A DNA stretch of 64,000 nucleotides, taken from Bilabrum cf. latius. Lineage: Eukaryota. Positions 6,749-59,100 of this stretch are shown one piece after another; the stretch's first letter is position 1, and each line of letters begins with the position of its first letter. The stretch is from positions 682,001 to 746,000 of the forward strand of contig OZ237753.1 of the NCBI GenBank assembly GCA_965178125.1. Reading direction: 5' to 3'. The position numbers and the translations under genes are program-made. The notes beneath the pieces were generated by a model. That model had not been told where the DNA came from. It saw nothing but the letters and a program-made list of their open reading frames with translations, and made no database searches.

Positions 6749-8123
6749 TCAAGAGGACCCAGACGGTTCCGCCTTGCCAGCACCCGCCCCGTCACCTACC
6801 GCTCCGGGGTCCGCCTTGGCGAGGTCATCCCCAGCAGCAGCAGCAGCTGCAGCACCGCCCTCGGCCCTAGTGTAGCTCCTCCGCTTGGCCACGTCCGACT
6901 CTGCCTTGAGTCCCTGCTGCACCTCGTGCTCGAGCAAGTGCTCCAAGAGCTTGCTGGTCCTCTGCACCTCCACAGAGAGCCTGGGGAGCCGCAGCTGGCC
7001 AGGTGCAGGGTTGTCGAGGCACGTCTGCGTCGAGACGCAGGCAGCTTCTCCCAACCGGCCTAGGCTGGCCACCACCTGGGTCAGCACGGGGATTCCCTGG
7101 GCCACTGCGGTGAGGGCCAGCTTCTCCTGGTGCTGCAGGGTCATGCGGACCACCTGCTCGTATGCCTCTGGCCTGCTCCTCGTAGCAATCGTGAGCGAGG
7201 GCATGTCGGCCACAGTGCCGTCCCTCGTCACACGGTTGAGCAGCTTGTCCAGCTGGCTCCAGTACTCGGCGCGGTACAAGTTGTCCAGGCTCACGGGGTT
7301 CGTCTCTGTGATGGAGATGTGTTCCCCGGCGGTGCGGCCTGCAGCGGCACCCTCCGCGGCGCCGTCGTGCTTGGGTCGGAAGCGGTTCCACCTGTAGTGG
7401 CCGAACAGGACCACGGCCTTGAGGCCGCTCTTGGCACAATCCACCGTGTGGTGGATCGAGTCGTCGATCAGGATGGACGCGCCGATCTCCTTGCAGATTT
7501 CGGCCTTGGAGCGGGGCTTGCCGCCCTTGCCGTCAGAGTAGTGGTTCCCAAAGTGAATGCCATCAAAGATACCGGGGTAGTGTCGCTTCACCCACTCCCG
7601 TGTCTTCTCCTCAACTGCTACCTAGCGGCTTGTTACAATGTGATAACTGAATCGAGTCGCATTCTTTTTCAAGATCCTTTCAGCATCCTCAATCGGGCGA
7701 ATCTCCATAAAGTCGTCGCTCTCAAAGAATTCCATTACCTCGTCCCGAACTTCATCGGGAGATCCTCCCCACGTATCGCTGAAATGATATGTTAGGTAAT
7801 CCTTGAGCTGAAAGTGCGTGCCGTGCCTCTTGTTGTGAAAGCTGGTCAGGCTCGAGAGGAACGACGCCTGCGAACTCGTAAAACCAGCTTGATATGTAAA
7901 ACATGGGAAATATTACCCTACCAATAAACGAGGGGAATATCAAATTTCAAAAAATACCCCTCGATTGAGACGGACTGATCAAAATGTAGCGGTGCGACCG
8001 GTTCCGAGCTACGCAGTGGATCCTCACCAGCACTTCATCGAGGTCTACGGCAATAACTACCCGTTTAGGCGCCTCAGCTGCTGCAGTGCTAGCATCAGCG
8101 CCAGCATCAGCAACACCAGCCAT
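6749..8123 (-). CDS. HAD-superfamily 5'(3')-nucleotidase-like (NT5C-type) protein with an Alba-like C-terminal domain
   Basis: Motif I VIAVDLDEVL, intron 7868-8027 (GT..AG), then HIVTSR*(TAG 7622)VAVEEKTREWVKRHYPGIFDGIHFGNHY, KAEICKEIGASILIDDS and LFGHYRWN. TGA at 6749. Confidence 0.8.
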
Positions 8124-8224
8124 ATTTACTGGAGATAGATCGGATTCTGGGCGGAATTCGTGAATCTCTGAGCTATCCTCAAAGTGATCGCAACAATACA
8201 ACAAAAACCAGATTCCTAGATCCT

Positions 8225-11200
8225 TCATCGAAGCGGCTGGCCGCCTGCAACGGATCGTAGCGCCCTAGCTTCGTTTGCGAGAGTGATGCAGTCTGCCTCA
8301 GCAGTAGCTGCGCACTAGCGCGCTCGTGCTGCCTCGGCCTCCACCTCAGCGAGCTGCGCGCTCGCCTTCGCAGCAGTTGCTCGCTCGCCGGCCTACTGCC
8401 CTCTTGCCCTGGCCCTCCGCGCGCAGATGGACAGCCGCTCCATCTGAGCGAGCATGCCACGCTCGCACCGCCGCGCGGCAGCCAGCCGTTCCCTGCACCT
8501 AGATCCCTCTTTCAGCGCCGCCTCGAGCTCCCCTGCTGCTCGCTTCGCCTGCTTGATGCAGAGCCAGGCCCGGTCCACCTCGGCGCGGGGTGGGCTATTC
8601 GAACGAGACAACACCCCGGGAGCATATGACAAACCCTTGGATGCGCACGATTGCCCCGCCACCAGTGCTCGTCTCAGCCTGGCAACGGATCTCCTGACCT
8701 CCATGGCTCCCTTCCGCAGCGCACGAGCAGACGCCTGCCCCGCCGTGACCGGCCAGTCGTTTTGAGAGTCATCCTTGGTCCTAGCGTCAGTCTAATCACA
8801 TCCATTTAGACTACTACCCGTGTTTGTGTGCTCCCGCCCCGCTTGGCCCAGCCGCAAAAGCAGAAGGTCAGCCTCCGCGATGATCTCCGATACCTCAAGC
8901 GACGGCGATGCTCGCCTCCGCGAAGCACCTGCTCGAAGGGCACCGCCGCTGCTGCTGCTGCTGCTGATGCGGGCAGTCGCTCGCGGGGCACGGCTTCGGT
9001 CGCTCGCTCCAGCCTGCAGCTCGACCGAATCGGGAGACGGTGCCCTGCGCGACGATGAGCGGGACCTCGCTGGCAGCAGTGATGCTAAACCACGATCATC
9101 TTCTCCGCGCCCTGTGCGCTTGCCTGGGCCATGCCGCTCTGGTGAGGTAGACGGGCTCAGATCCCTCCTGAACTTGGAGGGGGTCGTGTCGGCTAGAGCG
9201 AGCAGGCTCACGGTGCCCTGGCTGCTACCGCTCGCAGCGACAACCGGATCGGAACTAGCAGCAGATCGATCACCGGTACACACGGCATTCGATTGCAGTT
9301 GTGCTCTCTGCTCGGGCGATTTTGAGGCACTGTGTCCCCGGGGGCGTTGATCGATCTGGTCAGGAGAATGCAATCGAGCGGTGCCGTGGGCGCATCTTGC
9401 CGCATCGTGGGTGGACCCCCCAGACGGAAGCCTCCCTCTCATGCCGGCTGCTCCTCTATTCTCCGTTGAGGACGACCCTCTCAGCAGAGACATGACATCG
9501 AATACTCGAGCCTCGGGCCGCATCCCACCCTCGTTTAAGGGGTTCGATTTGGCAGACCTGAGATCGCCATTTCCACTGGCGAGTGGACTGGACGCGGCTG
9601 CTTCATTCACACTGCCATCAACACGGCTGCCCTTTGCTTGAGACATAGCTCTATCGCCCGCGTCACCGATACGGCGGTCTCCTGGCACTTGATCGCCAGA
9701 GTGCGATGAGGAAGTAATCGGTCGGCGATCGGGTGACTTGCTCCTAGGGCGAGGCGACGTGCTGCTGCAGCTCCTCGCAGTCCGGGGCTTGCCGGGTGCA
9801 GCGGCAGGTGAGCGCCCCCTCGTTGTCTCCCTATGGTCTCGAGCACGACTGGAAGATGGGTGCACCCTTCTGTCTGTCCTCTTTTCAGCGCTTTCGTGTT
9901 CAATGGCACCAGAGGTCTCGGCGGGGCGTTCAGGCCAATGCTCCGCAGGCAGCAGAGGCGGCCCGGGCCTACACTTGTCTTCTAGTGATTGCTGCCTCGT
10001 CTTCGTGTCATGGCTGCTCCCACCAATCGGAGGCGGTTCATCTCCTGCAAGCACCTGCCCGCCTCCACCGAGCCTCACCTTCCTGAGCCCGTGTCCTCGC
10101 CACCCTGCCGCACCTCTGGGCCACTGAGCCTGCACGCCTGCTTGCACTGCTTGGCTCGTGGGCCGCACGACAGTCGCACCACCGCTCTGAGCTCCCGCAT
10201 CCCCGACACCAACCGAGAATACGTCATCCAATCCGTCCATGAGAGCATGAAACGACCCAGCTCCACCCGGCGACAAGATGGACCTGTTTTGAAGCTCGTC
10301 GCGATCATCACGTCGGTCCCTCGTGCTGGGCTCGGAAGTTGTCAGCTCTAGACTGAATCCATGCAATCCCGATCCCTCGGCCCGCGGGACTGGACTTTGA
10401 TCTGAGCCCGCGACCGGCCTCTCTCTTTCTTGGTTAGAACGCCCAGTGCGGCCTTGCACGACCTCCTGCAGGAAGGCATCGATCTGCCGCATAGCCGCGC
10501 TTTTAGGGCTGCGGTGCTGAGGCTGATGCCCAAGGGCCAGGCCAATACCTGCGTTCTAGGCAGCTTCCTTCAGGACTACATCGAGCTCTTGCTCGCCCTT
10601 GCCGTGGGTTGACTCGCTCCCCGACATGGAGGAGCCACGGGTCCCGCGCGTGGCGCTGAGATGAGGCTCATCCTCCGACGCAACCGACACGGGCCCGCCA
10701 GCTGGCAGAATGGCCGAGGGCTGGTCCGCCTATGCTCCGGGGAAGCTGTCTCTGGGACTGTTCCTGGATCCATATGAGCTGCTCGTCTCCACGGGGATCG
10801 CGGGCCCATGGGGTGTCTGTGCATCGCTGTCTGCTCGCGTAGGCTGTTGCGTATGGATGCCAACTTCTGCGACTGCTTGTTCGCCGGGTCGGTTACTTTT
10901 TCGTGTTCCCGAAGAACCGCCGAGAAACCCGGTCGGTTTTCCTGCATCGGATCCTCTTGAACCGATCGAGCTGCCGCTTGATGGCAGCACAGCGCCACGA
11001 GCGCCCCGCCCGTCGCTGAGATCGCCACCTTGCGGAGTTCGGTCGTGCCGGCTGATGCTTTTTGCCAGAGCATCTACCAGCTCGTCCAACTGCTTGGTGT
11101 GCTCCGGCTACCACCCACCCCTCATCATGCGATCCGCACTGTCCTGCGAAAGGAACCAGCGGAGGCCGTGCATTTGCTAGTCGGGTGCAGGTGTTGCAGA

Positions 11201-13291
11201 TGAATTGCTGGATTGGGCGCCACCTGCACCCATCCTATCCGGTTTATTTGTATCAGGGGCAGACGACCGGCCACCGCGCACGCGCAGTTGCTCTCGGAGC
11301 ACAGCAGCAGACGCAACGGCAGCAGCAGCGCTGGGTGCAGCGTCAACACCGCCGATGCCGCGGGAATTGTTCGGCATGCCTTCGTGCGCATCTGCAGCAG
11401 CGTGGCCGTGATGAGGACCATGACCGGAACTTGATGGTGCGTGCGGTGACCCCTTGCCCAAGTCTGCATGATCGAGCGCTGCCACCTGTCCCAATTCCTC
11501 TGGAGATTTCCTTGGCTTGTTCGCTCCCACGCTGCTCGGAGTAGTCTCCATCGTGCCAGGCCTCATCCTCCTCATGAGGCGCAAAGCGGCCATCTTGGCC
11601 TGATCACCATCGGAAACGAGTTGATCCCGTACCGAAATTCCTTCCTCTCTGTCTATCCTCTCCCAGTCTGCGTCCTGAAGGCCCATGGCCGATTGAGGCA
11701 CTCCTCTCCTGCGCACACACGCGGTCACGATAGACCTGGCTCTGGAGGCAAGGCCGAGCGCATGGGCTGCAGTCATGTATGACCTCGTCCGACTCGGAAT
11801 GCTCGTCACCAGGAAGGTCTTCGCGTTGCCGAACAGCAGGGAACCCACGACCTTGGCCAGAAGGCCCCCCCGTTTGCTCGAGGTAGGCAGCACACGGGCG
11901 CGTGTCGCCTCTGCGATCCCAGCCGCGAGGCCGATGTCATTCTCATCACTATGATCAAGACTCATTGAAGTACTGCTACTAGTATTTCCCACACCCTCGC
12001 CCCTGCCTTTTTCGCACCGCTCCTTCTGGCTCGCGTCCCTGCCTCCCGCCTTGAGCTCCCTCTCCACCGAAGCTGCCTCGACCAGCATGCGCTCCACTGC
12101 AAGGGCGTCTTCTCGAAGATCCCTAGCGATGGTCTCAGGCAACGGAAGGGCAATATCTCTAGATGAAGGGCCGAGAATCCCGTTCAGTGCACCGTCCTTG
12201 ACTCCGAGTCGCCTGCTTGCCTGCCTCACGCTAGGCTAGCCCGCCAGCTGGACCGCGTGCAGTACTCTCACACATCCATCCGAAGAGGATCGCACCACGA
12301 TCCTGACCACAGTGTGCCACCCAAGTGCCTCGTGCTGCTCTTCCTAGCCTCCTGCGCCAGCTCCAGCTCGAAGAGCGCCTACCTCCGCCCCTCCCTGCCC
12401 GCCCGCCACTGGCACGATCGGGGGAGGCTAGTCCGGATCCAAGCATCGGCTTGGGGTCAGGTATCTTGCGCGGCAAGACGCCCGACGCAGCAGGAGGCAC
12501 GCCTCCTCGACGGAGCGCACCTGCGCGGTTGCAACGCGCAGAGCGTGGGGGTGCGACCCGATGGCAACGGCTGGGTGCTGGCAGCCTGGCAAGTTTCTCG
12601 AGTCTACTGCACCCACGTCAGCTGTTTGTTTACTTGATGTTCGACCGTCTGCCACTCTGCGGCCCTTCGGTCTCTCCTGGCTATCGTGCTAGACTCCAAG
12701 GAGTACGCGACCGTCGACTGCAAGGTCTGGCCAGAGCAAGTCTCTCCGCACGTCACCTCTGAGCTGGAAGCATGCTATCCCTACGCTATTCCCAGGAAAT
12801 GTCATGGAAGCATCATGATTGTCCCCAAGTGCCGAAGAACTGCTACTCGGCTTCGACAGGGCGCTCGACAGCGAGGTGAGCACGCTGCGAAGCAGGCCCG
12901 GCTTCTCTGCATCAAGGCCGAAGAAACTCTCGCGGTGTCTGTCCTAGCCTGTACATATAACATTTACATTCCAACCGTCAGCCAGCCAGGACACGACTCC
13001 CTACCCTACAGCTAGTTGCCCTGGAACGTCGTCTCGTGGAGATTGAAAGGCAACCGAGCACTCGTACTACCTTGCTTGTGGCGGCCGGCGCGATGACCAG
13101 CGGTCCGGTGCTCCATGAAGTAGAACTGATGAGCCAGAGGAGCTCGCACTCACGCGGGCGCCCTGCACTGAATGAGCCTCTTGGGACGCCTCTACCGTGC
13201 AGACCCGCAAGAAAGAATCGAGTTTCACGGACCGGGCATCAGCCCCAGTGACTGGAATATAATCTAACTATCTTGGATCGCCACATTTCAT
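8225..13291 (-). CDS. Divergent kinesin-motor-like protein, about 1690 aa, with a low-complexity/coiled-coil tail
   Basis: One frame from ATG 13291 to TGA 8225 with about 15 TAGs. Kinesin-like segments occur in the expected order: DGWNVNVICTG*, VGIACFQLRGDVRRDLL, VRSVEEACLLLRRA, WHTVVRIVV..LHAVQLAG*, GLLAKVVGSLLFGNAKTFLVTSI..ALGLASRARSI. The start codon is tentative. Confidence 0.7.
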
Positions 13292-13458
13292 CTCAAAAAA
13301 CCAAAGCAGGCTTGAAAATGGTACCGAGAGACACAATCTCCGCCAACGGACGGAAGCGGTCGCAACCAGCAGTTCTGCTGGGAGCAAAGGCAGTCAGGCT
13401 GGAGAGCCGCTCGAGCAAGACTGCGCCGTGCGACAAAGAATCGAGACTTGCGCCCACA

Positions 13459-15012
13459 TCACATGCCACCAGCAGAGTCCATGAGGGCCAGCAAATCGTC
13501 CTCCCCGCCCTCCTCGCCGGCCTCGGGCCCCGCCCCTCCCGCCGTCGCGTCCCTTCCGACCTCCGCATCGTCGTCGAAACCAAGGCTAGCGACCATGGCC
13601 GCCATCGTCTTGCGCTCCCCCGCGTCCATGATGATCACGGCACCCTCCTCGTCCGCGTCACCGGTGCCCGCAGTGACGCTTTCAGGGAACAAATTCAGCT
13701 CTGGGAGGGCACCTGCACCTGCACCGCCGCTGCCCGCCCCCGAGGCGCTGGTCGTCGATTCCGAGTCGGACGGAGCGCCCGCCCCGCCGAGCAACGAGGC
13801 GAGCAGGTTCAGCCCCGCGGCGGCCACCTTGGCTCCGCCCAGTGTTTCTTCGGGTGCTGGCTCCACAGGAGCGGCTGCCTCGGCTGCTGCGGTGCTTCGG
13901 GAGGAGGAGCCAGATTTGCCCGGAGTGTCCTTGGGCAGGTCGTTGATCCGTTGAGTTCTCTTGGTCCTGCTGGCCCGGGGCACTCCGATGAACTTGTGGC
14001 CGATCGAGGTGCTGCTGTTGGGTCCGGGCAGCGTGTGGCTGTTGTCCGGCGTGGTCTTGACCCTCGGCTTTGCGTACATGTTGCTGCCGAGCGTGACCTT
14101 CCGGGTGGTTTTGTCGAAGGAGGAGGGGCCCGTGCCCGGGGCCTCCTCTGCGGGGAGCACGCCAGATAGGCCCAGCTTCAGCGCGGACAGTTCCTGCTCC
14201 GATGTCTGTTCCCCGGACACGGCGTCAAAGTAGCTGCGGGGAGAAGGGGGGGGGGGGTCGGTGCGATGGATGGCACGGTGGGACAGGGCGATTGGCAGGC
14301 AGCCGACGATGGAGTGGGAGCGCGGTCCAATTGATAGCTACACTCACACAACTTTCCCAGGGATCGCGGCAAGCGGAGGAAGAGGCCCCTTCCGGCTGAG
14401 CACCATCGTTCCGTCGAGGTTCTGGACCTTGTCTTGCAGGAAGAGGGATACCTTCACTCGCCGATCCTGGAAAAAATTGAGCAAAGCCCGACGCAGGCGC
14501 CACAACTCGCCCACTGGCAGGCTACCATACGTACGAATAATTCTATCACGGGTGACATCCAGCAATCGTTCGGCTTCCAAGCCAGCAACCATGTCTCGAA
14601 GGGTTTCAACGTGGGTAAGCGTCACATCGGTCACCTCCCGAGGTTGCTTGCAGGCCAAAATCTGCTGCTTGAAGCCCATTGTCATTAAATCATACAACTT
14701 GTCCATCGAGGTTGAGTTGAGCCGCATGATGGACGAGTGTGCCAGCCTGTCGAAGACTTGTCGAGTTGCCCCATCCGTGTACATATCTTGCGGCTTGAAC
14801 AGTTCGTCGATAAACTTTGGGGCAAACATGGCACATACGACATCGTTCAAAACTCGCTTGCTCTTGTCCGACTAGATGCTCTGAGCGTCCAGTCGTTGGG
14901 CCAGGATGTAGAGCATCTCGCCGCCCATGTTGATCAGCAACAGTGGCATTCCAAGCAGCGTTCCGACTCCACGGGCGCCCAAAGAACTGCCAGACGATCC
15001 AACGGAGGCCAT
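13459..15012 (-). CDS. OSCP1: OSCP1 (organic solute carrier partner 1) family protein
   Basis: MPLLLINMGGEMLYILAQRLDAQSI*(TAG 14872)SDKSKRVLNDVV..LFKPQ..FDRLAHSSIMRLNSTSMDKLYDLMTMGFKQQ..FFQDRRVKVSLFL. Intron 14234-14347, then TLGSNMY. TGA at 13459. Confidence 0.9.
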
Positions 15013-15200
15013 TCTACCTGTTTGACTCAAAATATGGCAAAGTTAGGATGGATGCCGCCCCTGATCGACCCTTGTATCGAAACCGTGTCTCGAGACGGCG
15101 AACCCATTCTGAGCAAAACCGAACGTTCACTTGTATGAAAAAAGGATCCGGCGGCAACAATCGCGCCGAAAGAATTCCTTGCCCCGACTAAGAATATGTA

Positions 15201-17033
15201 TCAATCCTCTTGGCCGTCTTGCTCCACAGGCCTGCTTGTGGTTGTCCTCCACCCCGCCCTCGACACGGCGGCCGCGCCCTCCCGATCACTGAGCTCCTCG
15301 CTGGCCTCCTGCATCGCCCGCCCCGTGCGCCAGGTCCAGTACCGGGCGGCCGCCCCGGCCCTGGCGTCGATCTGCCTTCCTCGCTCCTGGTCCAGCTCGC
15401 ACTCGGCGCAGTACATGCTCTGTTCCCTGCACAGCTCGCAGTAGTGCGCGGCAGCCGGTTGCGCCGTGAGCGAGCGCGCGATGGCCAGCGTAAGCTGCCG
15501 TGCCAGCCGGGGAACAACGGCATCGCGCACCTTTTTTACCAAAACGTCTGCCAGGCCGCCCCTGGACACCAGCTCAACGGTCATATTTGCGACCAACGAG
15601 CGCACGAGCTGCTGCGTCAGGCGTGGTACCATGGTCCGCAGCAGGGCGCGCTGGACCCCGGCGGCTGCTTTGGGCACAAGCCTCTCTGCGATGACCCGTC
15701 GAAGCCTGGGCAGGGAGGCCTCAATCACAGTGGGTGTGACCACCAGCGACACTTGCGCCGCAGTTCCGGTGAGTCCCGTGTCTCCCTCTTGCGCCCTGCC
15801 TGGCTGGGCAGCGCCCCCTGTCCCCCCGCTTCCGGTGCTGCCCCCCGAGCCAGCTCCAGCCGTCCCCGCGCCCTGCCCTTGCCCCCTCCCGTGCCCCATT
15901 CCTTGCCCAGATGCCTGCAGCAGCTCCGCCTCGCTACCCTCCTCGCTACCCTCCGCCTCGCTACCAACGCCCTTCCACAGGTTCTACTCACGCGCGATTG
16001 CGCTGAGCCTAGCTTCCGCTTGCTGCCTCAGCAACTGCAAGCCGGCGGGTTCGTGCCCATCATGATCCCTGCCGCCGCCAGCACCACCCGCCCCATCCAG
16101 CCCCGCGTCGAGCAGCTGGCCAACCCAGGCTGTGTTCCCTGGCGTGGTCGACCTCGGCTGCTCCTGCCCGATAGGCACGGCACCGCCAGCCCCAGCCCCA
16201 GCCCCAGCCCCAGCCCCAGCCCCGGCTTCATCGCTGTGGAGGTCCACAGTGACGCCGCCCCCCTCCAGGTCGTCCAGGGCCAGCTCCAGAAGGGTTGCGT
16301 TCTGAGCCAGCTCGTGCACCGCTGCATGGTGTGCCATGGCGCTCGACCCCAGCTGCACGAAGTTCGGTAGCGGGGCGGTGAGTTCCTCCGGCAGGGGGGC
16401 GAGCAGCTCCTCAAAAGGCGGTGGCGGCGGCAGGGGCGGGAGGGCGGAGAGGGGCATGTTCTGCAGCGCGGGAGGGACTGCCATCGGGTCCATCTCCGCG
16501 ATCGGGGGGATGCTCAGTACCTGAAGCATAATCAGTGCGAGTATATTGTTGAACAAGTCGCACAGGATCTCCCTAGACAGCAGGAACGCCAGGCGGGGCG
16601 TGATGTACGCCAGCACGTTTCTGATCGGCTGGATGATCACCTCGTTGATGGTCCCATGCATAGCACGCTGTCCCTCGTGGGATGCCGAACGCAGTTTAGA
16701 AACGATCTGCAAAAATTCCAAGCCGCGTCTCTGGTCTGGACGGAGCGACAGGGCAACTGGTACGCCGGAAGGCTTACCGTCTCTTGTCGGCACGACATGC
16801 ACGCTGCGTGTGTCGGAAGCGATATCAAGCGAGCCGGAGGGATCTATCAGCGACGATAGTCTTTGTTCTCGCGGAATCTTGTACTTGTCGCGCAGCAGCT
16901 GCGAGCGGAAGCTAGTTGCCGTTGCCGCACCGGCTTCGGGCTTGAGAAAGCTATGTGGGGCAGTTACTGTCCCGCCGGGAGTCCACAGGGCAACCACTAG
17001 AAGAAAAACAACGTAAAGTACGTTTTTTGTCAT
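15201..17033 (-). CDS. Uncharacterised protein with predicted signal peptide, about 610 aa
   Basis: ORFs 15984-17117 and 15201-15899 are in the same frame, joined by TAG 15984. Hydrophobic N-terminus MTKNVLYVVFLLVVALW; C-terminal YCELC..YCAEC; TGA stop. Confidence 0.65.
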
Positions 17034-17186
17034 AATTTCATCCAAATTTAGTGCGTCAGGAGCCACTTGTAGTTTGCCATATTTTCGATCGTCACACTTG
17101 ATTTGTAGCGAGCACAAATCGAGTTGCCAAGATGGATTGCCGGAACGACCTCGAGTGGTACCCAGTGCAACACAGCTAGATTTTCC

Positions 17187-20069
17187 ATGAGCGATTCGGG
17201 GGGATGGTTCAACTTCATAGATGAATCGTCAGGTCTGCCATCGCCATGGGTGGTGTTCGTGCTAACTGTGATCATAATGATTGCTTTGTCCGTGCCGCAG
17301 ATTGGCTTGCTGCAACTCGGGTACTACGTGTACACGAGCCCGTTGGGTATTGGAAGAATCATTCATGAGTTGCAGCGATGGCATGTTGGGAAGAAACGCC
17401 ACACTGCAACGCAACGAGTGGCCAAGGAAGGCGAGCCAATGGCAGTCTCAGTGATTCCAGCCCTTGCCGACAATTACCAGTACATTGCGCTAGAAACAGC
17501 GACACTGCGGCGTTAGCTTGGCAACAGCCGGAGCTCCAGTGCTGCTGAGTCGAAGGAAGCGCCTGACCAAGCCAGCACCGGCAGCGAAGCCGACGCCAAG
17601 CCCAGGTGCACGTGTCACGCTGTAGTGGTCGACCCGAGCGACGCACCGCGAATCATTGAAGAAATTGAGCACTTGGAGAAAACGTACGATTGCAGGGTCG
17701 AAGTGGATGCCCTTCTGCTCACGCATTACCACCTGGATCACGTCGGCGGGGCAGGCGAGCTGGTGAGCGCGCTCGTTGCTCGCAACCAGCCCAAGCCCCA
17801 GGTGGTCGCCCCCCGAGACGAAATCGGGCGGATCGCAGTCGCGGTGGACATCCCTGCCAAAGACACTCTGGAAGACGACAGGACATCTACCCCGGAATAC
17901 GCGGCCCGCAGAGCAGACAGCAGGCTGGACGATCTCGCCGGGCCCAAGCCACCGGTCGGTTCCCTGCGGTTCGGCGAGGGCATGCTGGTGCACCCCATGT
18001 GCGTGGGCTGCCACACGCCGGGGCACACTGCGTATGTGGTGGAGTGGCGCAGCACCAAGGCCAAGGTGAGGGCACATGCCTCCATGCAGGCGGGGGGCAA
18101 GAGCCAGGGCAAGGGGGTGTCCTCCACCACGAGCGGCAGGGGCAAGGGCAAAGGCAGGGGCAAGGGGAAGAACTGGGACCCTGCGGCGTAGCTGCCGACT
18201 TCCACTCCTGACGATGTCGCGAGCAGCACTGCGGGCGGCTTGTCTGGCGATGTGGTGCTGGTGGACGGCACGCTGAACGGGCTCTGGGGCCGGGCACTCT
18301 TCTTCTCTGGCGACGCCCTGTTTGCCGGCGGCGTGGGTCGCTTCTTCGAGGGAACAGCGCTGCAGCTGGCACTGTCCCTGCTGCAGGTGGTGCGCGCAGG
18401 TGCCACGGGGCCCGGGCCCGACGAGAGCGACGCGGAGCAGGCGAGAGACCTGATGGAGGGTGTCAAGCTGCCGGGGCAGCAGGGGTCCGAAGGCGGTAGC
18501 CAGGCCGGGGAGGAGGAGCCCCACACGTTGCTGCTCAAGCAGCAGCGGGCAGTCTCGAGGCACTTCGCGCCCACCGTTCTGGAGCCGGCCCTGGAGCTCT
18601 GGAACCCACAGAGCCTTGTGGTACCCGAGGGCGGTGGTGCGGATGGCCTCGACGGGATGGTGCTGGACGGGGTGTGGAAGGGGTGGACGGGCATGTGCTG
18701 CCCCCTGCTGGAGGCGAACGTGGAGGTGGATGAGGTGCAGGTGCACCCGATGGCATTTGCTTCGACGGCCATGTCCAGGCTGTCGAGGGTGGCTGTGTTC
18801 CCTGGGCACGAGTACACGGAGGAAAACCTTCGATTTGCCCGCTGGGCAGAGCCCGAGAACATCGCGATCGAGGCCAAGCTGCAGTGGGCCGCGGCCCGGA
18901 GGGCGGGACATGCCCGGTGTCCGGGCGCCGTGGAGGAGGCGAGGGATCGCAGGGAGGAGAAGGAGGAGAAGGCGCTGGAGGTGCTGCAGGCCAAGGAAGA
19001 CCTGAGCGAGGGGCTCAAGCTGAGGATCGAGAGCGAGCTGGAGGGTATCAGGCAGAGGCGGAGCGGCAAGGGCAAGAAGGACCCCAAGGAGGGGGCGTCC
19101 AGCGCCGCCCCGGACCGACAAGCTTTGGGCTCCAAGGCCGCTGCTCCCTCCTCCGTCGAAGAGGAGAAGGACTCTTCTGCTGTGGCTGGCAAGGATGATG
19201 GCAGCAGCAGCAGCAAGCAGGCAGGTGAATCCCCAGAGAGGGTGGGAGAGCCCCTGCAGACGGTCCCCTCCACGCTGCAGGAGGAGCTAATGACGAACCC
19301 ATTCGTGCGAGCACTGGTGCCCGGCACTTGGGTGGCGGCCCGCATGGACCTGATCTCTGCCATGGCGGAGCGCGAGGACATGACTGAGCTGGATGAGCTG
19401 CCCGAGGCGGACCGCCTGCCCGCGCCCATCAAGCGTGCCGTGCAGGAGGCCCGGGAGAAGAGCAACGCTGAGATGGTTCCGCTGCTGCAGGACATCGTCA
19501 GCGAGGCCCGGGAGAAGGGCGACGACATCTCTGTGCAGAAAGAGATGCTGGTGAGGGGCGTGGTGGCTCGGTCCGTGATGCGGCTGTGGCTGCTGAGGAC
19601 TCTCAAGAGCGCCACTGTGCACAAGGAGGCGTCCGGCGTGGCCTCCTGGCAGGGTCCATCGTGGGCGGGCTGCGAGAAGTACCTGAGGGAGATGGAGGAC
19701 CACGCGACCGCCAAGAGGAAGAGGCTCGAGAAGGAGGCTGGGGAGGCCAGGGCAGCTGCGGAGGTGTACGGGGGGGCGTCGGAGGAGGCCGAGAAGGCAG
19801 CCACGGCTCATCGGGAGGTGGGGGCTAGCGGACAGGATGAAGAGGATGAAGATGACAGCAGCGATGATGGCATCGTGACCGGGCAGGCATCAGAGTCTGC
19901 GGCAGCGAAAGGAAAGGGCAAGGGAAAGGGCGCGGGTTCTGCTTTTGGGGATAGCGGTGCGGATGAGGAGGTGGAGCAGGAGGAGGAGGAAGAAGAAGAA
20001 GAGGAGGAGGAGGAGGATATTGACGATCGGATGCTGGATGAGCTGCAGGCAGAGGTGCCTTTGGACTGA
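17187..20069 (+). CDS. Metallo-beta-lactamase-fold hydroxyacylglutathione hydrolase (glyoxalase II)/PNKD-like protein with N-terminal membrane segment
   Basis: VIPALADNYQY, AVVVDP, LLTHYHLDHVGG, CHTPGH, FSGDALFAGGVGRFFEG, VFPGHEYTEENLRFA and TVPSTLQEELMTNPF are all in one frame across TAGs at 17514 and 18189. Acidic tail; TGA stop. Confidence 0.85.
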
Positions 20070-20271: not shown

Positions 20272-21128
20272 TCAATCTTCCATGGCTGCGATGCCGTTGC
20301 TGCCACCACTGCCTGCAACTGCCCCACCTCCTCCGTTACCCTTGCCGCTGCCACCCTAAGCAAATGCCCCTGCCCCGCTCGATGCCGCTGCCCCGCTCGA
20401 TGCTGCTGCACCAGCAGCGACAAACCGGATCCCTTTTGTTGGTCCAGATCGCCGCGGATGCGCGGGATCCTCTGCTTCGTCTTCGCCGTCCCCCGCCCGC
20501 CCCGCAGCGCTGTCATCCATGTCGTACTCGTCGTGCTCACTCCCATCACCCGCCTTTGCGCTGCCTCCGCCAGGGAGCACGGGCTTGAGCGATTCGCCCC
20601 CGGCGGCTTGCTCGGCCTTCGCTGCAGCGTCTTCCAATTGTTTTTGTAACCCGCCTTCGACAACTTCCTCTTCCCGGGTGCCGCGAAGCTTCCTTGGCTT
20701 GGGGCCGCACGGCTCCACCATCCTCTCGAGCATCGACAAACGGACCCGCTCAACAGGCACACCCTCGGCCGCAGCAAAGTACATAAGTTGATCAGAATGG
20801 CCTAGATGAGATGCCATTGCATCCCTATGCATATTAACGGCCCATTCGCTGCGGTGTTACGAAATCAACATATCATGCGCGCTCAAGTGCGCAGTGGGGG
20901 TTGCTTGGCAACACAAACTTGAGACACCTAGGTATACTCACTGCTTCGAAATATCTGGACTTCCTGTTCCAACGTATTTTCGCTTCAAGTGCTCCCAATT
21001 TCTGGAAAGGCTAACGTTAACATTGAATCTATCTTGTGCCTGCGGGAGGCGAGTGTGAAGCATGCTTGTGACTGTAAGAGTGGGTAATTTGCCGGGCTGG
21101 CCAGTGCCTCTGTGAGCAATCTCACCAT
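20272..21128 (-). CDS. SF3B5: Splicing factor 3B subunit 5 (SF3b10) with a long C-terminal extension
   Basis: ATG-only first coding exon (21126-21128); introns 21040-21125 and 20849-20941. Spliced product MAQDRFNVN..EHLKRKYVGTGSPDISKHEWAVNMHRDAMASHLGH..MYFAAAEG..RMVEPCGPKP. TAG at 20356; TGA at 20272. Confidence 0.85.
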
Positions 21129-21263
21129 TTGGACACCCTAAACTGTGGTTCGCCAGCAACTAGCAAGCAAATGCCGCAAATGTTGCCCTGCTGATGGCTA
21201 TGAAGAAGAGGCACAAAAATACATCGAAAAGTGCAACAACACCCATTGGAACGCTTGAAGAGT

Positions 21264-44278: not shown

Positions 44279-47200
44279 TCACTCCACAAGCCCCAGCTGA
44301 CCGAGCGCAGCATCGAATGCAGCATCATCGTCAACGAGCCTGTCGTCTCCCTGATCCAAACCTGCCTCCGACGCGACTGATGCAGAGGCGCCCGTGAGGC
44401 CCCTGAGCCGCGCAGTGCCGGAAGCGCTCCCGCTGGCCATGGAGGAAGCGGGAGATGCAGGGGTGGCGGGGGTGCCGATCGAGGAGTCGCCACCTGCGGC
44501 CCTAGTCCCTACACCAACACCTGCCCTTGCATTCGAAGCGCGCGAACCGAAATGCAACGCATCGGCGTGCACCGGTCCCGCACTCGTCACACGGTCGCGC
44601 CCCCAAGACCCCAGCTTGCCCCGATCGCGGTCCGCCGGGCCGTCGCTTGATCTCCGAGGCCGCCCGTCATCCACACGTATGCCGCCGCCACCGGCGCCAT
44701 CACCGCCCCGGCCTCCTGCAGGAGACCAGGGCTGCCTGGAAGATGCGAACTGTTTCTAGCCCGAGCTGCTCCCACCGCTGGACACACCGAAGGCAGCGCT
44801 GGGAGCAGTGCCCGATCGCCTGTGCGCGCCACCCTTGCCTACCTATCCCTTGCTGGCCCCACCTTCCGTGCCGTGGCCCGCCCCCGCCACCGCCCTGCGG
44901 CGCTGCTCTGAGGACGTGCTGAGCGCCGCCGCACTCGTCACACTGCCATCGGGGCCCGCCCTGTGGTCGGGCACGCCAGCAGAGCTGGCTGCCGACACCC
45001 GCCCGCCGTCCTCGCACCTACCCGCCGAAGACCCCGCATCCAGCCCGACCGCTTCCAGCGCTGCCACCGTTGACGGCAACGAGCCGGGCATGGGACCCAT
45101 CGCGGGAACCGGATACCCTTCACCAGCACTAGTGCCAGTGCCAGTGCCAGTGCCTGCCCGAGCGCCGGCTCGCGCGCCTGCATCTGCTCCCGGTGCGTCC
45201 ATTGCACCACCGTGCGATGCACCCTGACCTCGGAAGCCTGTCAGTGGGTGCGCCCTTCCGCCACCGCTCCCGGGCCGTCCCACCCCCACCACAGCACCTC
45301 GAGCCAGCGCGTCGGCAGACAACGCCGTGCGCGCGCCAGGCGAGGACGAGGACGCATAGTAGTGCGGCACGTCCCGCTTACTGGCTCCGGGTCCACTCTC
45401 CTCAGGACGATCCGGCAGCCGAGGGGAACTGCCGATGTTGAACTCGAGCTGGCGTATGATGGGCGACCCGCAGTCCGTGGTAGCGTCATCCCCACCGAGT
45501 ACCGAGGTCTCCACCGATCCAGCCACGGAGCGTCGGCCGCTCGTAGCCCTGCCCACGGACCCCAGCCGCAGCAAGCCCCCGCTCAGCCCGCTCCCCACTC
45601 GCTGCAGCCCCCCACCATCCCTGTACTCCAGCCCCAGGCCCATCGGGAGACCATCCGTGGACCGAGGTGACAGCCCACGGGCCCCGGCCTCTGCAAGCAG
45701 CACGCTGCTGGGAACGCTGGCCGATCCCAATTCGTCCGCGCTACGTCTCCCGGAGCCCGTTGTGCCCACAGACCCTATCCCGTCATCTGCCCCGCCCCTC
45801 GTCGCGCTGAGCCGAGGCAGTCGCGGGGGCAGGCTTGAGCCGTGCACCGGCGTGTTGAGGCCGCTACTGCCTCCACGAGCCGCAGCACTGCCTGCCATGC
45901 TGCCTGCCATGCTCCCGCTCCCAGAACTGCTGCTTCTGTCGTTCGTAGCAATGACCTGCACGCCCCCCGGCTGCATCTAGGCGGAGGAGGAGGAAGCAGG
46001 AAAAAAACCAGTGGCAGAGACGCCCGATGCGGCACCACTGCCATGCCCTGCACCTGGCGTGCGGGGGGCGTCATCATGCCCACCAGCAGCACCGGCTGCT
46101 CGACCTGCGTACAACCTCACCCCACCAGGGCCAGGAGAGCCTGCGGGTGGCAGCCTTGGTCCAACATGGCTGCCAGCTGATCCAGCGCCCGCAGCATCGG
46201 CAGCTCTGCCAGGTCCCCTTCGGATCCCACCGCGGGGGTCACAAGATGCGGCCAAAGGTGCCGCCCCTGCTGCCGCGGGCTCCTCGGGCACTGTGGCCAT
46301 GCACCCCGTGCTCGTGGCAGGAGCGGAAGAAGCCAGCCTTCGCTCGCCTCCGCCAATGCCACCGGCCCCCCTCACGCGGATATCGCCGCCTGCAGGGGAC
46401 GTTCCCCCGTGCACGCCTATGCCACTGATTCGAGCCCTAGCGGGTGATGGTCGGCTCTTCCTCTTCATTGCCTGCCCCCTGGGGGTGTGCAGCAGCGATA
46501 CCAAGTCACACTTCCTAGCCCTCCTCTGTCTCACCCCAGTCTCCGAGGCCTCCTTCACAGAGAGCCCCTCTTCCGTGGCACGGTATTGTTCCCTGAGCGC
46601 GCGCATGTCCGCGGTGGTGATTCGCTCCGCGAACACCCTCCGCATGAAATCGTCCGCCGAGTCACCTAGTTCCCTTGGCACCTTGCGCAGGAGAGGCAGC
46701 ACCTCGTCAAAGTCCAGCTTGAGGAGGCGCGGCCGCACCAGCCGCAGCACTGCGAGTGCCACTCGGAAGACGATCTTGCCCTCCGTCTCGTGCCCGTCGT
46801 GGAAGAAAGCGTCGAACACCCTGGTGACCCGGTCGAAGGGGAAGCAGTAGCTGTACAGAGTGAGCACCCACTGAGAGGCAAACATGGAGGGGTGGAGCCC
46901 CTTCGTCCTGAAATACGAGCCCAGGTCGGGCATGTGCTTGTCGATGAGCTTCGTGAGGATCCAAAGCGACTCCTGCAGCCGGGGCAGTGCGGGCAGGAAC
47001 AGTTCCCTGAGCCTGCCCCTGTACATGAGGGCCACGATGGTCCAGAACGCGCTCTCTTCGGGGAGGTGTATGAGCAGGGCGCCCGCCAGGAAGCCCATCC
47101 CCTGGCAGTACCCCACGTCGGGGTCATACACGGCATACGCGGCAAGGACTCGCCGGAGCGAGAGCTGGCCCGGGCTGTCGTGCCCCATGAACTGGCGGTG

Positions 47201-47919
47201 GCGGGGGTATGTCCTGGACAAGTCTCGGTCGATGTACGCCAGGTCCGTCGCCGGGAGCAGCCGCTTGGTCAGAGAAGCGTACATGCCTGCGAAAAATGAA
47301 TAGTGCGGGGCTCATGTTGCAGTGTTCGTGTGAGATAGACGAGCAGCACTAGGCATATAGCTCGGCAGCACAGGCACGAGCGAGTGAAAGCCAACCCAGT
47401 GGTAACCAAACTCTGCACTAAGGCTAGACGCAGTGAACCACAGGGCAACTAGACCCAGAAGCTTGCGCGCCACAGGAAGACAATGCTACGTTCGCTCCAA
47501 TAATGCAGATTCTTGCCAGATTCACCACAAAGCACCACGACGGAGCGATGATGCTTGTGCGGATAGCATCCGTTTCCGTGCAGCCAGTACTGGCATATAG
47601 CCTTACCTGGATGATCCTAAAGCAATGCATCGCTACCACAGAGCTTCATCCAAACCTAGGGTCTGCATGCGGTAGGAATGCCCTTCCGCACCCGTGTTTT
47701 CAGCCTGGCTGTGCCTGTCCAGGTGGCCCACCGCTCCAACATGCTCCTCCACTTCTTCAATCGGGAATTCTCCAACCAAACTTCATCTTTAGTCAGAGGC
47801 CTACTCCGACAAACCGTATCAGAGCCTTCTTCTGCGTCCAGAAAACCGAAACGATCCGGCTTCGAACCAGACCGAGCTGTCGAGGCGGAAGGAGTCGGGG
47901 TTCCACCCGCCGAACTCAT
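44279..47919 (-). CDS. TBC-domain Rab GTPase-activating protein (EVI5/TBC1D10-like)
   Basis: DRFGF..RLKKWRSML..RVRKGIPTACRP*VW; intron 47287-47606; IDRDLSRTYP, YCQGMGFL, EESAFW, FASQWVLTLY. Tail joined via TAGs at 45977, 44843 and about 44756; TGA at 44279. Confidence 0.9.
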
Positions 47920-48553: not shown

Positions 48554-51500
48554 ATGGATAAGTTCGATGTCATCAAGACGCTGGGGCGCGGAGCATTCGC
48601 CGAGGTCAAGCTGATCAAAAAGAAGACAACAGGGGAGATGTTCGTGGCGAAAGTGTTCCATACTGCCATGTCAGATCTATCGGAAAGAGAAAGGCTGGAG
48701 ATTGCGCAGGAGATCAAGCTGCTGGCGCATCTGTCGCATCCAAGTGAGAATCTGCTGCCGCCAACGCCAACGCATCCCTGAGCAACGCAGCTCATACCCC
48801 TGACAACGTCACCGCATTTCTCTTGTCGCAGATATCGTTAGGTTTGTGGACAATTTCGTGGAGGACGACCGAATGCGGATCATCATGGAGTACGCATCTG
48901 GCGGCAGCCTGGATCGGAAGGTGATGCTCCAGGAAGGCAACTTGTTCGAAGAGGAGCGCATCTGGGAGTACTTCGTGTAGATTGTGGCCGCACTGAAGTA
49001 CGTTCACAGCGTGCATGTGCTGCATCGAGATCTCAAGCCGTAGAACATCCTGCTGACCGGCCCCCAGCATCGCATCGTCAAGCTCGCCGATTTCGGGATA
49101 GCAAAGGTCTTGTCGTCAAAGACCGAACAGGCGCAGACCCTGATCGGTACTCCGCAGTTTCTTTCCCCGGAGCTGTGCGCGGGCTCCAAGTACGATTCCA
49201 AGAGCGACGTGTGGGCGCTGGGCTGCATCCTGTACGAGCTGGCGCAGCTGAGGAAGCCATTCGACGGCTCCAACATGCCGGCCATCTTTTTGTCCATCAT
49301 GAGGAGCAAGCCAAGGGCGCTTCCATCCAAGTACAGCAAGGAGCTCAGGGGCCTCGCCGCCCTCCTCCTCAGGCCGCGCCCGGAGGACCGCCCTAGCCTC
49401 GCCGACCTAGAGCGGATGCCAGCGGTCGAGGCCCGCTGGAAGAAATGGAGGGCGACGAGGAGGAGACTCATGGCCCCGCTGCCCACCCCAAAAGGCATGG
49501 GTGGAAGCGGGGGCGGGGCCGGGGGCCGCCCTCCGAGCACCGGGGGCGGGGATAGCCCCATGCCCACGGGTGATGATGAGGACGACCTCTGCGCTGCGAG
49601 GGGTCGGGAGGGCGTGCTGCTTCAAGTCGTGCCGCAGACTCCTTCCAGCGTTCGTTAGAAGCTGAGGAAGGAGGCGGCCGAGCTGGAGGCAAAGATCACG
49701 GACGAAGTGGCGCTCCTGGCGAGGCAGTCACAGGCCGCGAGCCGAGTGGAGGACGCAGATAGGCTGCAGGTGCGGCTGCGTGAGATCGTGTCTGAGCTCA
49801 TGGAGAAGGGCCAGGGCTTCGGGGCGACTATCTGGGAGCAGCTGGGCCGGGCGTGCGCCGATTCTGGGGCGTTCGACGAGGCGATCCAGTCGTATCGCCA
49901 GGCCCTGAGCCGCAGCTCGAGCAGCAACCAGAGCTCGATGAACACCATGGAGCAGCTGGGCAACCTCTTGGTCAGGCGGGCCCAGCAGGTGTGGGCCATG
50001 GCTCGTCTGGGCAGGGAACAGGAAGCGCTGGAGGCCGGTCGCAAGGCGCTGGTGGGTCGCAACCAGCTCATGGGGAAGCATGGGAGGAGGGCGGGCGCGA
50101 GGCGCCGGTCGCGAGGCGTCGGGCGGGGGTCTCGCCTTGGGAGGGGTGCTCGTGGTGGTGGCGACACGCCCGGGGCGGGCAGGGGGCAGGTTGCCGGCGG
50201 CAGTGAGCTGGAGACCGGCGACCCGGAGTGGAAGAAGATGGCGGCCGAGCTGATGGTGGAGGGCGTGATGCACATCGAGAGGCTGAGGTCCCTGCTGCCT
50301 ACCCCAGAGAGGTGCTCTCTGCTGGGCTCTGCCTTCAAGCGGAGGGCCTGGACGGGGCTGGGCGACAGCCGGAAGAAGGATCTACAGTACGCCGCGGAGG
50401 CCTACCGCGAGGCCTGGAACATGGAGCTCGGGAGGGCAGAGGACGAGGTGGAGCGACTGGACGCCGAGACCGGGCTGCAGGGGACGCAGGAGCAGGAGGA
50501 GGCCAAGAAGGACGAGAAGATGCTGATCCGATCGACCGACGACCAAGAGGACCTGCACGTGAGCGACAGCAGCGACTCGGCGGCCCTGGAGGACGAGGAG
50601 GACTACGCCTACGCTCTGTCCATGGGCGGAGGTGACGGGTCTGGCACGGGCACCGGGCGGTCGTCCATGGGCGGCGAGGATGATGCAGAGACAGACGACG
50701 AGGAGCACTCGAAGGATCCGGTGGCGAAGCAGAAGAGAAGGCTCGGCAGGAGGAGGGAGAGGCTGATGCTCCGGCCCAACCCCTACGCCCGTCTCAACCA
50801 GCTCACTCTCGAGCTGCTGGCCGGGTCTGGCTCCAAACGAAGGGTGGCTCGGCTCGCGCGGCGCGTGAGGGAGGCAGAGTTCTTTGCATCCAAAAAGAAG
50901 GAAAGAGAGGCCAGTGATGTGTGGCTGTGGGTGCAGGTGGTAGATGCGCGCTGCCTCAGGTACCTGATTGACGACGGCAAGTTTGACAGCGAGCAGGCGC
51001 TCAAAGACGAAGCTGGTATCGAGAGCGCGGACCCGTCCGGCAGCGTGTCAGCGGCAGCAGCTGCAGGGGATGCCAAGGGCAGCGATGGGCCCGCGGATCC
51101 TCGCAAGCGGCCCAACCCGCTGATGGAAGCACCCACGCTTCAGACCGTGTCTGCTGGTTACAAGGAGCAGTTCGTCTTTGGTGCCACGCAGCGAGTGCGG
51201 TCCAGCGTCATGGATCAGCTCGGCTTCCTCGAGGAGGTGCTGCAGGGCAGGGTCAAGGAGGAAGAGGACAAGCAGCCCACGCCAAGGGTCCCGCCCGCGG
51301 GCAGCGCCGCCGCCGCTGCCGCTGCAGCGGGCGGGAAGCACAGCGGCCGGGGCGGAGTGGAAGATTCAATGTCAAGCATTGGCGAGAGCGGCTCGGTCGT
51401 TGGCATGACTCCCAAGCCAGGGGGCGACGGTTAGCTCGGCGCCTCCGTGCAGCCTGCGCTGCCAGGGCAGGTGGAGTCGCCCCGCGCCGTCCCCATGCCT

Positions 51501-56085: not shown

Positions 56086-56154
56086 TCGAGTCTCCTCTTC
56101 CTGTCTCCTACCCCCTCCCTCAACGCGGCTTCAACAATACGATGAGATTGCCTC

Positions 56155-59100
56155 TCACACGGTCTCGGCCTTGTCGGTTGGTGCGGTGGACAGCTTGGTT
56201 GCAGTCGCCGCCCCACCTTCTGGCGAGACTTTGCCCTGTGCGGCGTACTTGGCCGAGCCTGAAGCCTGGGGCTAGTCGCTACTAACGCCCTCCTTAAAAG
56301 AGTCAGTAGGCGAGACTCGGCGCAACAACTTCTTGCGGGGCGACTTGCTTCTGCACAGCATCCACGCTGCTACTGCTAGCCCCAACACGAGCAAGATGCC
56401 TGCAGTGACTCCCAGCAAGGCGATCGTAGAGGGTGATAAGACAGGCCCGTCGTCCTCGTCGCCGCCACTTGACCGACCAGATGACACCAGAGGTGCCTCT
56501 GCCACCACTACGTCTCTCTCCTGGTCCACGGTTGCCACATCTGCATTATCAGTTGCAATTGAAATAGACTCTCTCTGCTCTGCAGGCACGGAGGCGCGCA
56601 AGTCGGACAGAAGACTACGAACGCCGGTGAGATTGTTGCTTGCGCCGGTCCCAGGTATGAGATTACTGCTACCAGCAATGTAGCTCATAGCATTGCCTTG
56701 TGCGGAGCTGGCATCCGCTCCGGCTACAAGCAGCACGCGCACGTCAATTACTAAGCCTGAGTTTTCATTGGATGCTTCCTGCTGCATCCGACGAGCTGCC
56801 GGGATGACAGAACCTATCGCAGCAACACGAATTACAAATACTGCTTCACCATCCGTTGCTGCAAGCAACCCAGAGATCATTGACTGCCCCAAAGTAAGTC
56901 GAAACTAAACGCTAGTTATACCGAAAATCTCTATCCGAGAAATATCCACATATCGGCCAGCGGCGATGATTGGCTACGTGCACCTCATATAGTCAAGCGA
57001 GCATACGAGACCATCAAAGCAACTTGTGGAGTCGGCACACCTAAGTCCTTGGCTGCATCTGTCGCAAGTTGGATCGAATGGGTCGCCGCAATCTATATCT
57101 GACTCTCTGCCATTCTTGATATTATCGGTGCACGCGCTAGTGTTGGCTGCCGCTGGGATGGACTGTGGAGCCACAGATAGACTGGCGCTGGCGCTCGGAC
57201 TGCTGCCCATGGACGGCGATGCAGATGGACTGGAGCTGGTCGACGGCGACACTGACGGGCTGGCGCTGGCGCTGGCACTCGGACTGCTGCCCATGGACGG
57301 CGATGCAGATGGACTGGAGCTGGTCGACGGCGACACTGACGGGCTGGCGCTGGCACTCGGACTGCTGCCCATGGACGGCGATGCAGATGGACTGGAGCTG
57401 GTCGACGGCGACACTGACGGGCTGGCGCTGGCGCTGGCACTCGGACTGCTGCCCATGGACGGCGATGCAGATGGACTGGAGCTGGTCGACGGCGACACTG
57501 ACGGGCTGGCGCTGGCGCTGGCACTCGGACTGCTGCCCATGGACGGCGATGCAGATGGACTGGAGCTGGTCGACGGCGACACTGACGGGCTGGCGCTGGC
57601 GCTGGCACTCGGACTGCTGCCCATGGACGGCGATGCAGATGGACTGGAGCTGGTCGACGGCGACACTGACGGGCTGGCGCTGGCACTCGGACTGCTGCCC
57701 ATGGACGGCGATGCAGATGGACTGGAGCTGGTCGACGGCGACACTGACGGGCTGGCGCTGGCACTCGGACTGCTGCCCATGGACGGCGATGCAGATGGAC
57801 TGGAGCTGGTCGACGGCGACACTGACGGGCTGGCGCTGGCGCTGGCACTCGGACTGCTGCCCATGGACGGCGATGCAGATGGACTGGAGCTGGTCGACGG
57901 CGACACTGACGGGCTGGCGCTGGCGCTGGCACTCGGACTGCTGCCCATGGACGGCGATGCAGATGGACTGGAGCTGATCGACGGCGACACTGACAGGCTG
58001 GCGCTGGCGCTGGCACTCGGACTGCTGCCCATGGACGGCGATGCAGATGGACTGGAGCTGGTCGACGGCGACACTGACAGGCTGGCGCTGGCGCTGGCAC
58101 TCGGATTCGGAGAGGTGCTAGACGAAACGACGGGTCCACCCATTTCCAGAATAAATATGGCGCCCTCACCATCGAATTCATGGGGCCCACCTAACACTAA
58201 GTCTCTTCGACCGTCTCCGTTGAGGTCGTCAAAAACACCTATCGGGTAAAGTTCAATCGTGTCGAGCATATTGTCGTCTATCATGAAGCCGTTGCGAACG
58301 GCAACTGAGCTATTCCAGTCGTTCAAAGCAAGGATGACTATCTGTGCATCACCGTAGGCGTCCTTAAAAAATGGCACAGACACACTTAAGTCTTCAACTC
58401 CATTCCCGTCAATATCGCCAACATTTCGCACGTCAGACCCAAAGTGCACGAATCTCTCTGGTGGAAGGACGGACATGCCCTCTTGTCCGTTCGCAATCAG
58501 TCGCGCGGAGCCTGGCACAACCCCACCAGTCACGTTCACGCCAAACAGCACCACACTGTCAGATCCAGGTGCCCCGACGGCCAATTCCACCACTCGGTCA
58601 GTGCTGCGAGGTGCCAAGGCAGCCATACTGAAGCCAAACGCAGACATGCTTAGACCGGGCAGACCCCCGCCAGCAGCTGGCAAGATGCGTGTATGCGCTT
58701 TTACCGTGTCGTCCGCGTGGAGGAAGAAGATGTGGACACAGCCGCCCGTGTCCGCAAATGGGGCTCCAACAGCAATGTCATGCAGACCATCGTGGTCCAA
58801 GTCGCCCAGGCTGCCGCTAGATGACATACCGAACGAGTCTCCGCTGGCCGTCAGGTTCGACGGCAGCCCGGCGTGCCCGCTATCAAGCACAGTGACGTTG
58901 GTCACATTGCCTATCGAGTCCATGCGTAGGATGAGTGCGCGACCGGAGTGACTGTTAGTGCCAGCGCCATCGTGCCCGGGCTGACCCAGGATGATACGAG
59001 GAAATTGGGCATCGTGGCCGTGAGGCTAGTCAAGGCGTGAGATCCCGGACCCGAAGTTGGAGTTGCTCTCACCATTGATAGCCTCGTCAATGCCACCTCC

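Follow-up and report, generated by a model that had tools for sequence, protein, structure and literature searches.

UAG as a glutamine codon and UGA as the stop codon in a 64-kb GC-rich window of probable protist nuclear DNA

Whether UAG can become a sense codon while UAA is left out of the change, and what UAA then does, is the question raised by the 64-kb stretch of DNA analysed here (contig OZ237753.1, positions 682,001 to 746,000 of the forward strand; referred to as the window). Its long reading frames contain many TAG triplets but no TAA, and are closed by TGA. UAG is a sense codon in these genes and stands for glutamine, and UGA terminates them. The code as a whole is probably of the NCBI table 15 type, with UAG read as glutamine by the cytoplasmic ribosomes, UAA assigned to no amino acid, UGA as the working stop and UAA perhaps kept as a rare stop.

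In a conservative coding set drawn from the 19 host genes of the window, the 18,124 codons read in frame (54.4 kb) include 96 TAG, 18 TGA and no TAA. All 18 TGA are terminal and none was found inside a gene of the set. Of these TAG, at least four probably do not belong to coding sequence: three are situated in a probable 5' leader upstream of the start of the HAGH-like gene and one in the intron of OSCP1. With TGA and TAA taken as stops, the longest frames reach 3751, 2614, 2077, 1722 and 1561 codons; when TAG is also counted as a stop, as in the standard code, the longest frame has only 967 codons. In the same coding set glutamine is encoded by 168 CAA and 427 CAG, and TAA is found out of frame in those stretches, with 35 occurrences in one of the remaining frames and 49 in the second. 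Given the 96 TAG and the ratios of A-ending to G-ending codons (0.39 for CAA/CAG, 0.34 for GAA/GAG and 0.24 for AAA/AAG), 23-38 sense TAA would be expected, and the probability of observing none is at most 7e-11. TAA does not serve as a sense codon. TGA forms the gene end in 18 of 18 cases in the window and in the one case (OSCP1) from a metagenome relative. The first-pass annotation of this DNA had listed the same 18 gene ends as TGA, had met no in-frame TAA in spite of the free use of CAA, and had regarded UAG and UAA as decoupled. Each of its 18 coordinates is indeed a TGA that closes a long frame, and the decoupling is borne out by TAG in glutamine columns and by the complete lack of TAA in frames.

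The identity of the amino acid was deduced from alignment columns. In ERO1, the TAG at 40743-40745 falls in the conserved column of a WGKLQ motif, which 16 of the 17 aligned homologues fill with Q and the remaining one with E. Two TAG codons of the NEK-like kinase domain (48978-48980 and 49041-49043) correspond to columns with Q in 64 and 51, respectively, of 65 homologues, these being single-stretch matches chosen among 150 listed. Among PDB sequences, NEK1 has Q at both of these sites and NEK7 at one, and the protein fragment P0161, 95% identical to the window gene, also has Q at both. The TAG column of ribosomal protein L1 holds Q in the best PDB match and K in E. coli chains, which is compatible with glutamine but weak.

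A metagenome contig (L001) encodes an OSCP1 orthologue that is 88% identical at the protein level and shares the intron position. The only TAG in the OSCP1 coding sequence of the window faces CAA in L001, and two CAA codons of the window face TAG in L001, one in an invariant glutamine column (Q72) and the other in a column with at least 90% Q (Q36). A second organism so shares the reading of TAG as glutamine. All three swaps (L001 403-1026 versus window 14349-15003) exchange TAG with CAA and none with CAG; TAG and CAG are one transition apart, and three swaps are too small a sample to interpret.

The use of codons around the gene ends was scored with a leave-one-gene-out model. For the stretch that separates the last TAG from the TGA, the mean score was +0.159 per codon (15 genes), similar to that of whole genes, and in the 50 in-frame codons past the TGA it was -0.139 (18 genes). 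In every one of the 15 genes tested, the coding signal runs on beyond the last TAG and breaks off at TGA, so that in this small sample, and by an indirect measure, UAG is not used as a terminator. The protein ends agree with this picture. The OSCP1 frame closes with the conserved C-terminal DDLLxLMD motif of its family just before the TGA, and the residues CVVS precede the TGA in both the PRL-like phosphatase (36155-36169) and the NEK-like kinase (53475-53489), the latter tail lying beyond the last TAG of the gene. CVVS at the end of the phosphatase is presumably the prenylation-type motif expected for the PRL family. A CaaX-like tail of this kind is unusual for a NEK kinase.

Six short GT..AG introns of the window, all near the 5' ends of genes, are present in a DNA run (X3) and absent from the contigs of three other runs (X5, X6 and X7). 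The latter runs were counted as RNA-like since their contigs are without introns; none of them is on record as RNA, and the contigs carry no poly(A) or other 3' end information, so the gene ends given here are not anchored by transcripts. The spliced contigs carry the TAG codons of the PRL-like phosphatase, L1 and NEK genes without any listed base difference. Across 20 kb compared, with the ERO1 repeats at 39422-39471 and 40367-40458 skipped, the sole base difference is T>C at 40143 (depth 4, run X7), outside any TAG codon. Because the TAG codons are unchanged in intron-less contigs, RNA editing is not the explanation for them.

The features of the window, with their positions and strands, are the following.

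3-6233, minus strand: host gene, no family assigned; 2077 codons with 18 in-frame TAG and 0 TAA; 3' end beyond the window
6058-6603, plus strand: C2H2 zinc-finger fragment frame (PF00096, E 6.5e-8), ending in TAA at 6601-6603; doubtful gene
6749-7735, minus strand: NT5C-like (HAD) gene (PF06941, E 3e-6); 1 TAG; stop TGA at 6749-6751
8225-13291, minus strand: host gene, no family assigned; 1689 codons, 15 TAG; stop TGA at 8225
13459-15003, minus strand: OSCP1; exon 1 at 15003-14348, with one TAG, and exon 2 at 14233-13459; stop TGA at 13459
14347-14234, minus strand: OSCP1 intron, GT..AG, 114 nt; contains an in-frame TGA and a TAG
15201-17033, minus strand: host gene, no family assigned; 1 TAG; stop TGA at 15201
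17187-20069, plus strand: glyoxalase-II-like gene (metallo-beta-lactamase and HAGH_C domains); TAG codons within the coding portion; stop TGA at 20067-20069
20272-20856, minus strand: small host gene; 1 TAG; stop TGA at 20272
21204-22160, plus strand: small host gene; 4 TAG; stop TGA at 22158-22160
22645-33900, plus strand: host gene, no family assigned; 3751 codons with 13 TAG and 0 TAA; stop TGA at 33898-33900
34076-34166, plus strand: intron of the L13 gene, spliced out in contigs
34169-35170, plus strand: ribosomal protein L13 (organellar type), last exon; 2 TAG; stop TGA at 35168-35170
35701-36169, plus strand: PRL-like dual-specificity phosphatase, last exon, after an intron at 35586-35700; 1 TAG; C-terminal CVVS, then TGA
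36536-37231, minus strand: ribosomal protein L1 (organellar type), last exon, with an intron at 37232-37322; 1 TAG; stop TGA at 36536
37687-38637, minus strand: lipoyl(octanoyl) transferase-like gene; 2 TAG; stop TGA at 37687
39129-41453, plus strand: ERO1, last exon, after an intron at 38907-39128; 6 TAG; ends TAG-TGA
41839-43527, plus strand: protein kinase; 1 TAG; stop TGA at 43525-43527
44279-47285, minus strand: RabGAP-TBC gene, last exon, with an intron at 47286-47605; 3 TAG; stop TGA at 44279
48832-53489, plus strand: NEK-like kinase with TPR, last exon, after an intron at 48744-48831; 6 TAG; C-terminal CVVS, then TGA
53692-54555, plus strand: host gene, no family assigned; no TAG; stop TGA at 54553-54555
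54751-56153, minus strand: tyrosine-recombinase-like remnant in two frames, 55257-56153 and 54754-55440; 4 in-frame TAG; TAA at 54751-54753
56155-63999, minus strand: FG-GAP repeat surface protein; more than 2614 codons, 15 TAG; 5' end beyond the window; stop TGA at 56155

Several of these gene models deserve comment. The two frames of the OSCP1 locus (13459-15042, minus strand), split by an in-frame TGA, represent one gene; the intron at 14347-14234 leaves the frame open, and frame-based counts may therefore include intron codons. The plus-strand stretch 15210-17200, the 5' half of a 1619-codon frame, is antisense to the gene at 15201-17033 on the minus strand and was rejected as coding; the glyoxalase-like gene in that frame probably starts near 17187. 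ERO1 carries an insert with 23 consecutive Gly codons and with repeats of GA type. In the FG-GAP gene, a Ser/Pro-rich array with an 84-nt period (57182-58105) was found, as well as two copies of 678 nt (60148-60825 and 58474-59151) that are 99.85% identical and carry the same two TAG codons each; these point either to an internal duplication of very recent date or to copies collapsed or expanded in the assembly.

If UAA is not a sense codon, does it still terminate? TAA was found at 0 of the 18 host gene ends, which places the 95% upper bound on the share of TAA stops at 15%. In the 9.3 kb of noncoding sequence TAA makes up 32% of TAA plus TGA, and 0 of 18 under this share has P=0.001; in the off-frames of the coding stretches it makes up 13%, and the same outcome has P=0.083. 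The lack of TAA among stops, with P of 0.001-0.083 depending on the null chosen, is only suggestive. Around the TGA stops themselves, T is the next base in 9 of 18 (TGAT). The first further TGA or TAA to follow in frame is a TGA in 9 genes and a TAA in 2.

Two frames of the window end in TAA, namely the recombinase remnant (54751, minus strand) and the zinc-finger fragment (6601, plus strand). The first-pass annotation had pointed to both as the places where TAA ends a frame, which is correct, but both are doubtful as genes. The zinc-finger frame (6058-6603) shares sequence with the 5' end of the neighbouring gene (3-6233). The recombinase-like sequence is split over two reading frames without an ATG, its match to PF00589 (E 2e-4, 21.6 bits) is under the cut-off of 27.1, and a TGA follows 7 codons beyond its TAA. 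Since these frames are broken and the Pfam match is weak, their TAA says little. The sequence had also been labelled a retroelement, and this label (DIRS-like) is not supported, in view of the split frames, the missing ATG and the presence of recombinase-like frames only: no sign of a reverse transcriptase was seen in the 1.6-kb gap between the host genes, two of the six frames of which were scanned against Pfam. It has the look of a recombinase, probably either decayed and Crypton-like or domesticated, and not that of a retroelement. A codon-usage scan of the window for coding-like frames ending in TAA returned only frames antisense to host genes. The top-scoring one (56909-58249, plus strand, 446 codons) lies opposite the Ser/Pro array of the FG-GAP gene, on the other strand, and was rejected as a repeat artefact. 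On balance we lean towards UAA being still recognised as a stop and seldom used. The first-pass interpretation thus held for the decoupling, for UAG as glutamine and for UGA at gene ends, and was not supported for the retroelement; on its choice between a rare and an unassigned UAA, 0 of 18 with a bound of 15% is compatible with both.

The table 15 type reading suggests a simple mechanism. UAG would be decoded by a tRNA-Gln with anticodon CUA that reads UAG only. C34 does not pair with A, and a CUA anticodon excludes UAA by the standard wobble rules. The discussion of suppressors in McGowan et al. 2024 (PMC11687900) likewise does not expect a CUA-anticodon suppressor to read UAA. The release factor eRF1 would have lost the recognition of UAG, and UAA may have been kept as a stop that is rare, with GC-rich third positions and a preference for UGA. 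No tRNA gene was detected by ARAGORN in the 64-kb window, nor is an eRF1 gene located within it.

A possible alternative is that UAA is effectively unassigned, with an eRF1 specific for UGA, like that of organisms in which both UAR codons were reassigned, tRNA-Gln(CUA) alone, and UAA purged from frames and gene ends alike, leaving a single working stop. It is in line with the 0 TAA at 18 ends of the window plus one end of the relative, with the 0 TAA in 18,124 sense positions, and with the P of 0.001 obtained from the noncoding share of 32%; moreover, the organisms described in PMC5304391 and PMC11687900 as reading UAG alone as glutamine mainly use UAA as their stop, from which the window differs. 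The off-frame share of 0.13 (P=0.083) and the upper bound of 15% leave room for a rare UAA stop, and two frames do end in TAA, neither of them a sure gene. Table 6, in which UAA and UAG both mean glutamine and UAA would be rare by GC bias, shares with the window the TGA as only stop seen and TAG as glutamine. It was what the first-pass annotation had set against its own reading, and it is excluded within the window by the 0 TAA seen against 23-38 expected and by the frequent TAA off-frame; as a general explanation it is close to refuted and can be given very little credence.

A context-dependent code as in Condylostoma and the karyorelict ciliates, with UAG meaning glutamine internally and acting as terminator near transcript ends, would be suggested by the TAG codons in the last 2-4% of the frame of several genes and by the ERO1 end TAG-TGA (41448-41453). 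It is improbable, as codon usage remains coding-like past the last TAG in 15 genes and drops after TGA, the NEK tail beyond the last TAG carries the same CVVS as the PRL-like phosphatase, and TGA and TAA are never in frame, unlike in those codes without a dedicated stop, where in-frame sense use extends to all three stop codons. That the TAG codons are not translated as such, being edited from UAG to CAG, or reflecting pseudogenes or assembly errors, is hardly credible. Nothing in favour of it was found: at TAG codons the spliced contigs agree with the window in all three runs, the orthologue in L001 has TAG at other positions, and decay does not fit with 96 TAG placed within frames that are intact apart from them and reach 3751 codons.

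Several points nevertheless weigh against the table 15 type reading. The gene set consists of 19 genes of one 64-kb window, and the counts for the NEK columns come from a chosen set of matches. The OSCP1 column with the TAG is variable, with P in 18 and A in 6 of 27 other rows (26 aligned), and this family alignment by itself gives no indication of what TAG means. The FG-GAP repeats, which could have served as an internal comparison, were uninformative: at the DNA level the copies are too recent and TAG aligns with TAG only, BLASTP of the protein against itself returned the self match only, and in an alignment of four modules the residues opposite TAG are mixed (E 6, G 4, P 3, and R, S, T and Q 2 each). 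Both parts of the mechanism, tRNA-Gln(CUA) and an altered eRF1, are postulated, and no gene of either was seen. Finally, no host gene of the window ends in TAA, so that UAA as a stop has no positive support here, and the P of 0.001 from the noncoding share is better fitted by avoidance of TAA than by mere rarity.

From what kind of organism does this code come? The window has a GC content of 62% and a high gene density, with 19 genes in 64 kb. The predicted products are eukaryotic and include ERO1 (PF04137, E 9e-92), a RabGAP-TBC protein, the NEK-like kinase with TPR, a second kinase, a glyoxalase-II-like protein, OSCP1, L13 and L1 of organellar type, a lipoyl transferase, the PRL-like phosphatase, an NT5C-like protein and the huge FG-GAP protein. 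The window is probably part of the nuclear genome of a protist rich in GC and poor in introns. For ERO1 and for the NEK kinase domain, the closest named proteins both come from Cafeteria roenbergensis (P0002, and P0151 with 61% identity, respectively). These best named matches of two genes, with no tree behind them, suggest a bicosoecid-like stramenopile, which is a lead and falls short of a placement. A ciliate host is contradicted by the best matches.

Reassignments of UAG alone are few, the accounts in PMC5304391 and PMC11687900 naming Iotanema, an uncultured rhizarian, Scotinosphaera and a handful of ciliates. In Iotanema spirale, according to Panek et al. 2017 (PMC5304391), UAG is glutamine, and UAA ends 104 and UGA 15 of 119 scored genes. 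The window resembles Iotanema, as presented there, in that UAG alone is reassigned, to glutamine, UAA is never in frame and UAG was never seen to terminate. It differs in the preferred stop, Iotanema using mainly UAA and the window UGA in 18 of 18 genes and UAA in none. Iotanema is furthermore an AT-leaning anaerobic metamonad, whereas the window is GC-rich and its nearest named proteins are from a stramenopile. UAG as glutamine with UAA as stop is also described for Hartmannula sinica, Trochilia petrani and Protocruzia tuzeti in McGowan et al. 2024 (PMC11687900), where independent origins of this code are documented and a suppressor with a CUA anticodon is proposed as the mechanism. The code table is the same in these organisms and the window, but the stop preference is opposite, and by its best matches the window is not from a ciliate.

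The table 6 code of ciliates, dasycladaceans and Hexamita has UGA-only stops and UAG as glutamine in common with what was seen here, with the difference that UAA is not a sense codon in the window. UAG and UAA are also decoupled in the uncultured rhizarian exLh (UAG as leucine) and in Scotinosphaera (UAG as serine), both covered in PMC11687900, as well as in a TARA phyllopharyngean lineage (UAG as leucine); the columns of the window point to glutamine instead. In a literature search, with supplements outside it, no change of the nuclear code was found for a stramenopile, bicosoecid or labyrinthulomycete, and no organism with UAG as glutamine and UGA as sole stop. The decoupling and the exact code table are already known; new here are a GC-rich genome with reversed stop preference and its probable lineage. 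A more tentative proposal is that of a GC-rich relative of bicosoecids with UGA as sole working stop and an unassigned UAA, which would have ceased to be a stop without having been captured as glutamine. Such an organism would be a living intermediate between the standard code and table 6, and stramenopiles would gain their first change of the nuclear code, one shared by at least two related lineages.

If the standard code is used to annotate this genome and related ones, most of the long genes will be fragmented. Two public proteins, P0023 and P0161, are 95-98% identical to genes of the window and look truncated. P0023 starts at the first Met past the OSCP1 TAG, which fits a standard-code call cut at that TAG, and P0161 spans only 118 residues of the NEK domain.

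The finding adds a new lineage to a rare, already described kind of code. The dominance of UAA stops in the known cases of UAG as glutamine has been used, in PMC11687900, to argue that UAA is locked in once UAG leaves. Decoupling of UAG from UAA does not depend on a dominant UAA stop, and a near-unused UAA as found here is open to later capture. The order of events in the reassignment of UAR, whether eRF1 or the tRNA changes first and whether an unassigned stage is passed, thereby becomes testable in nature.

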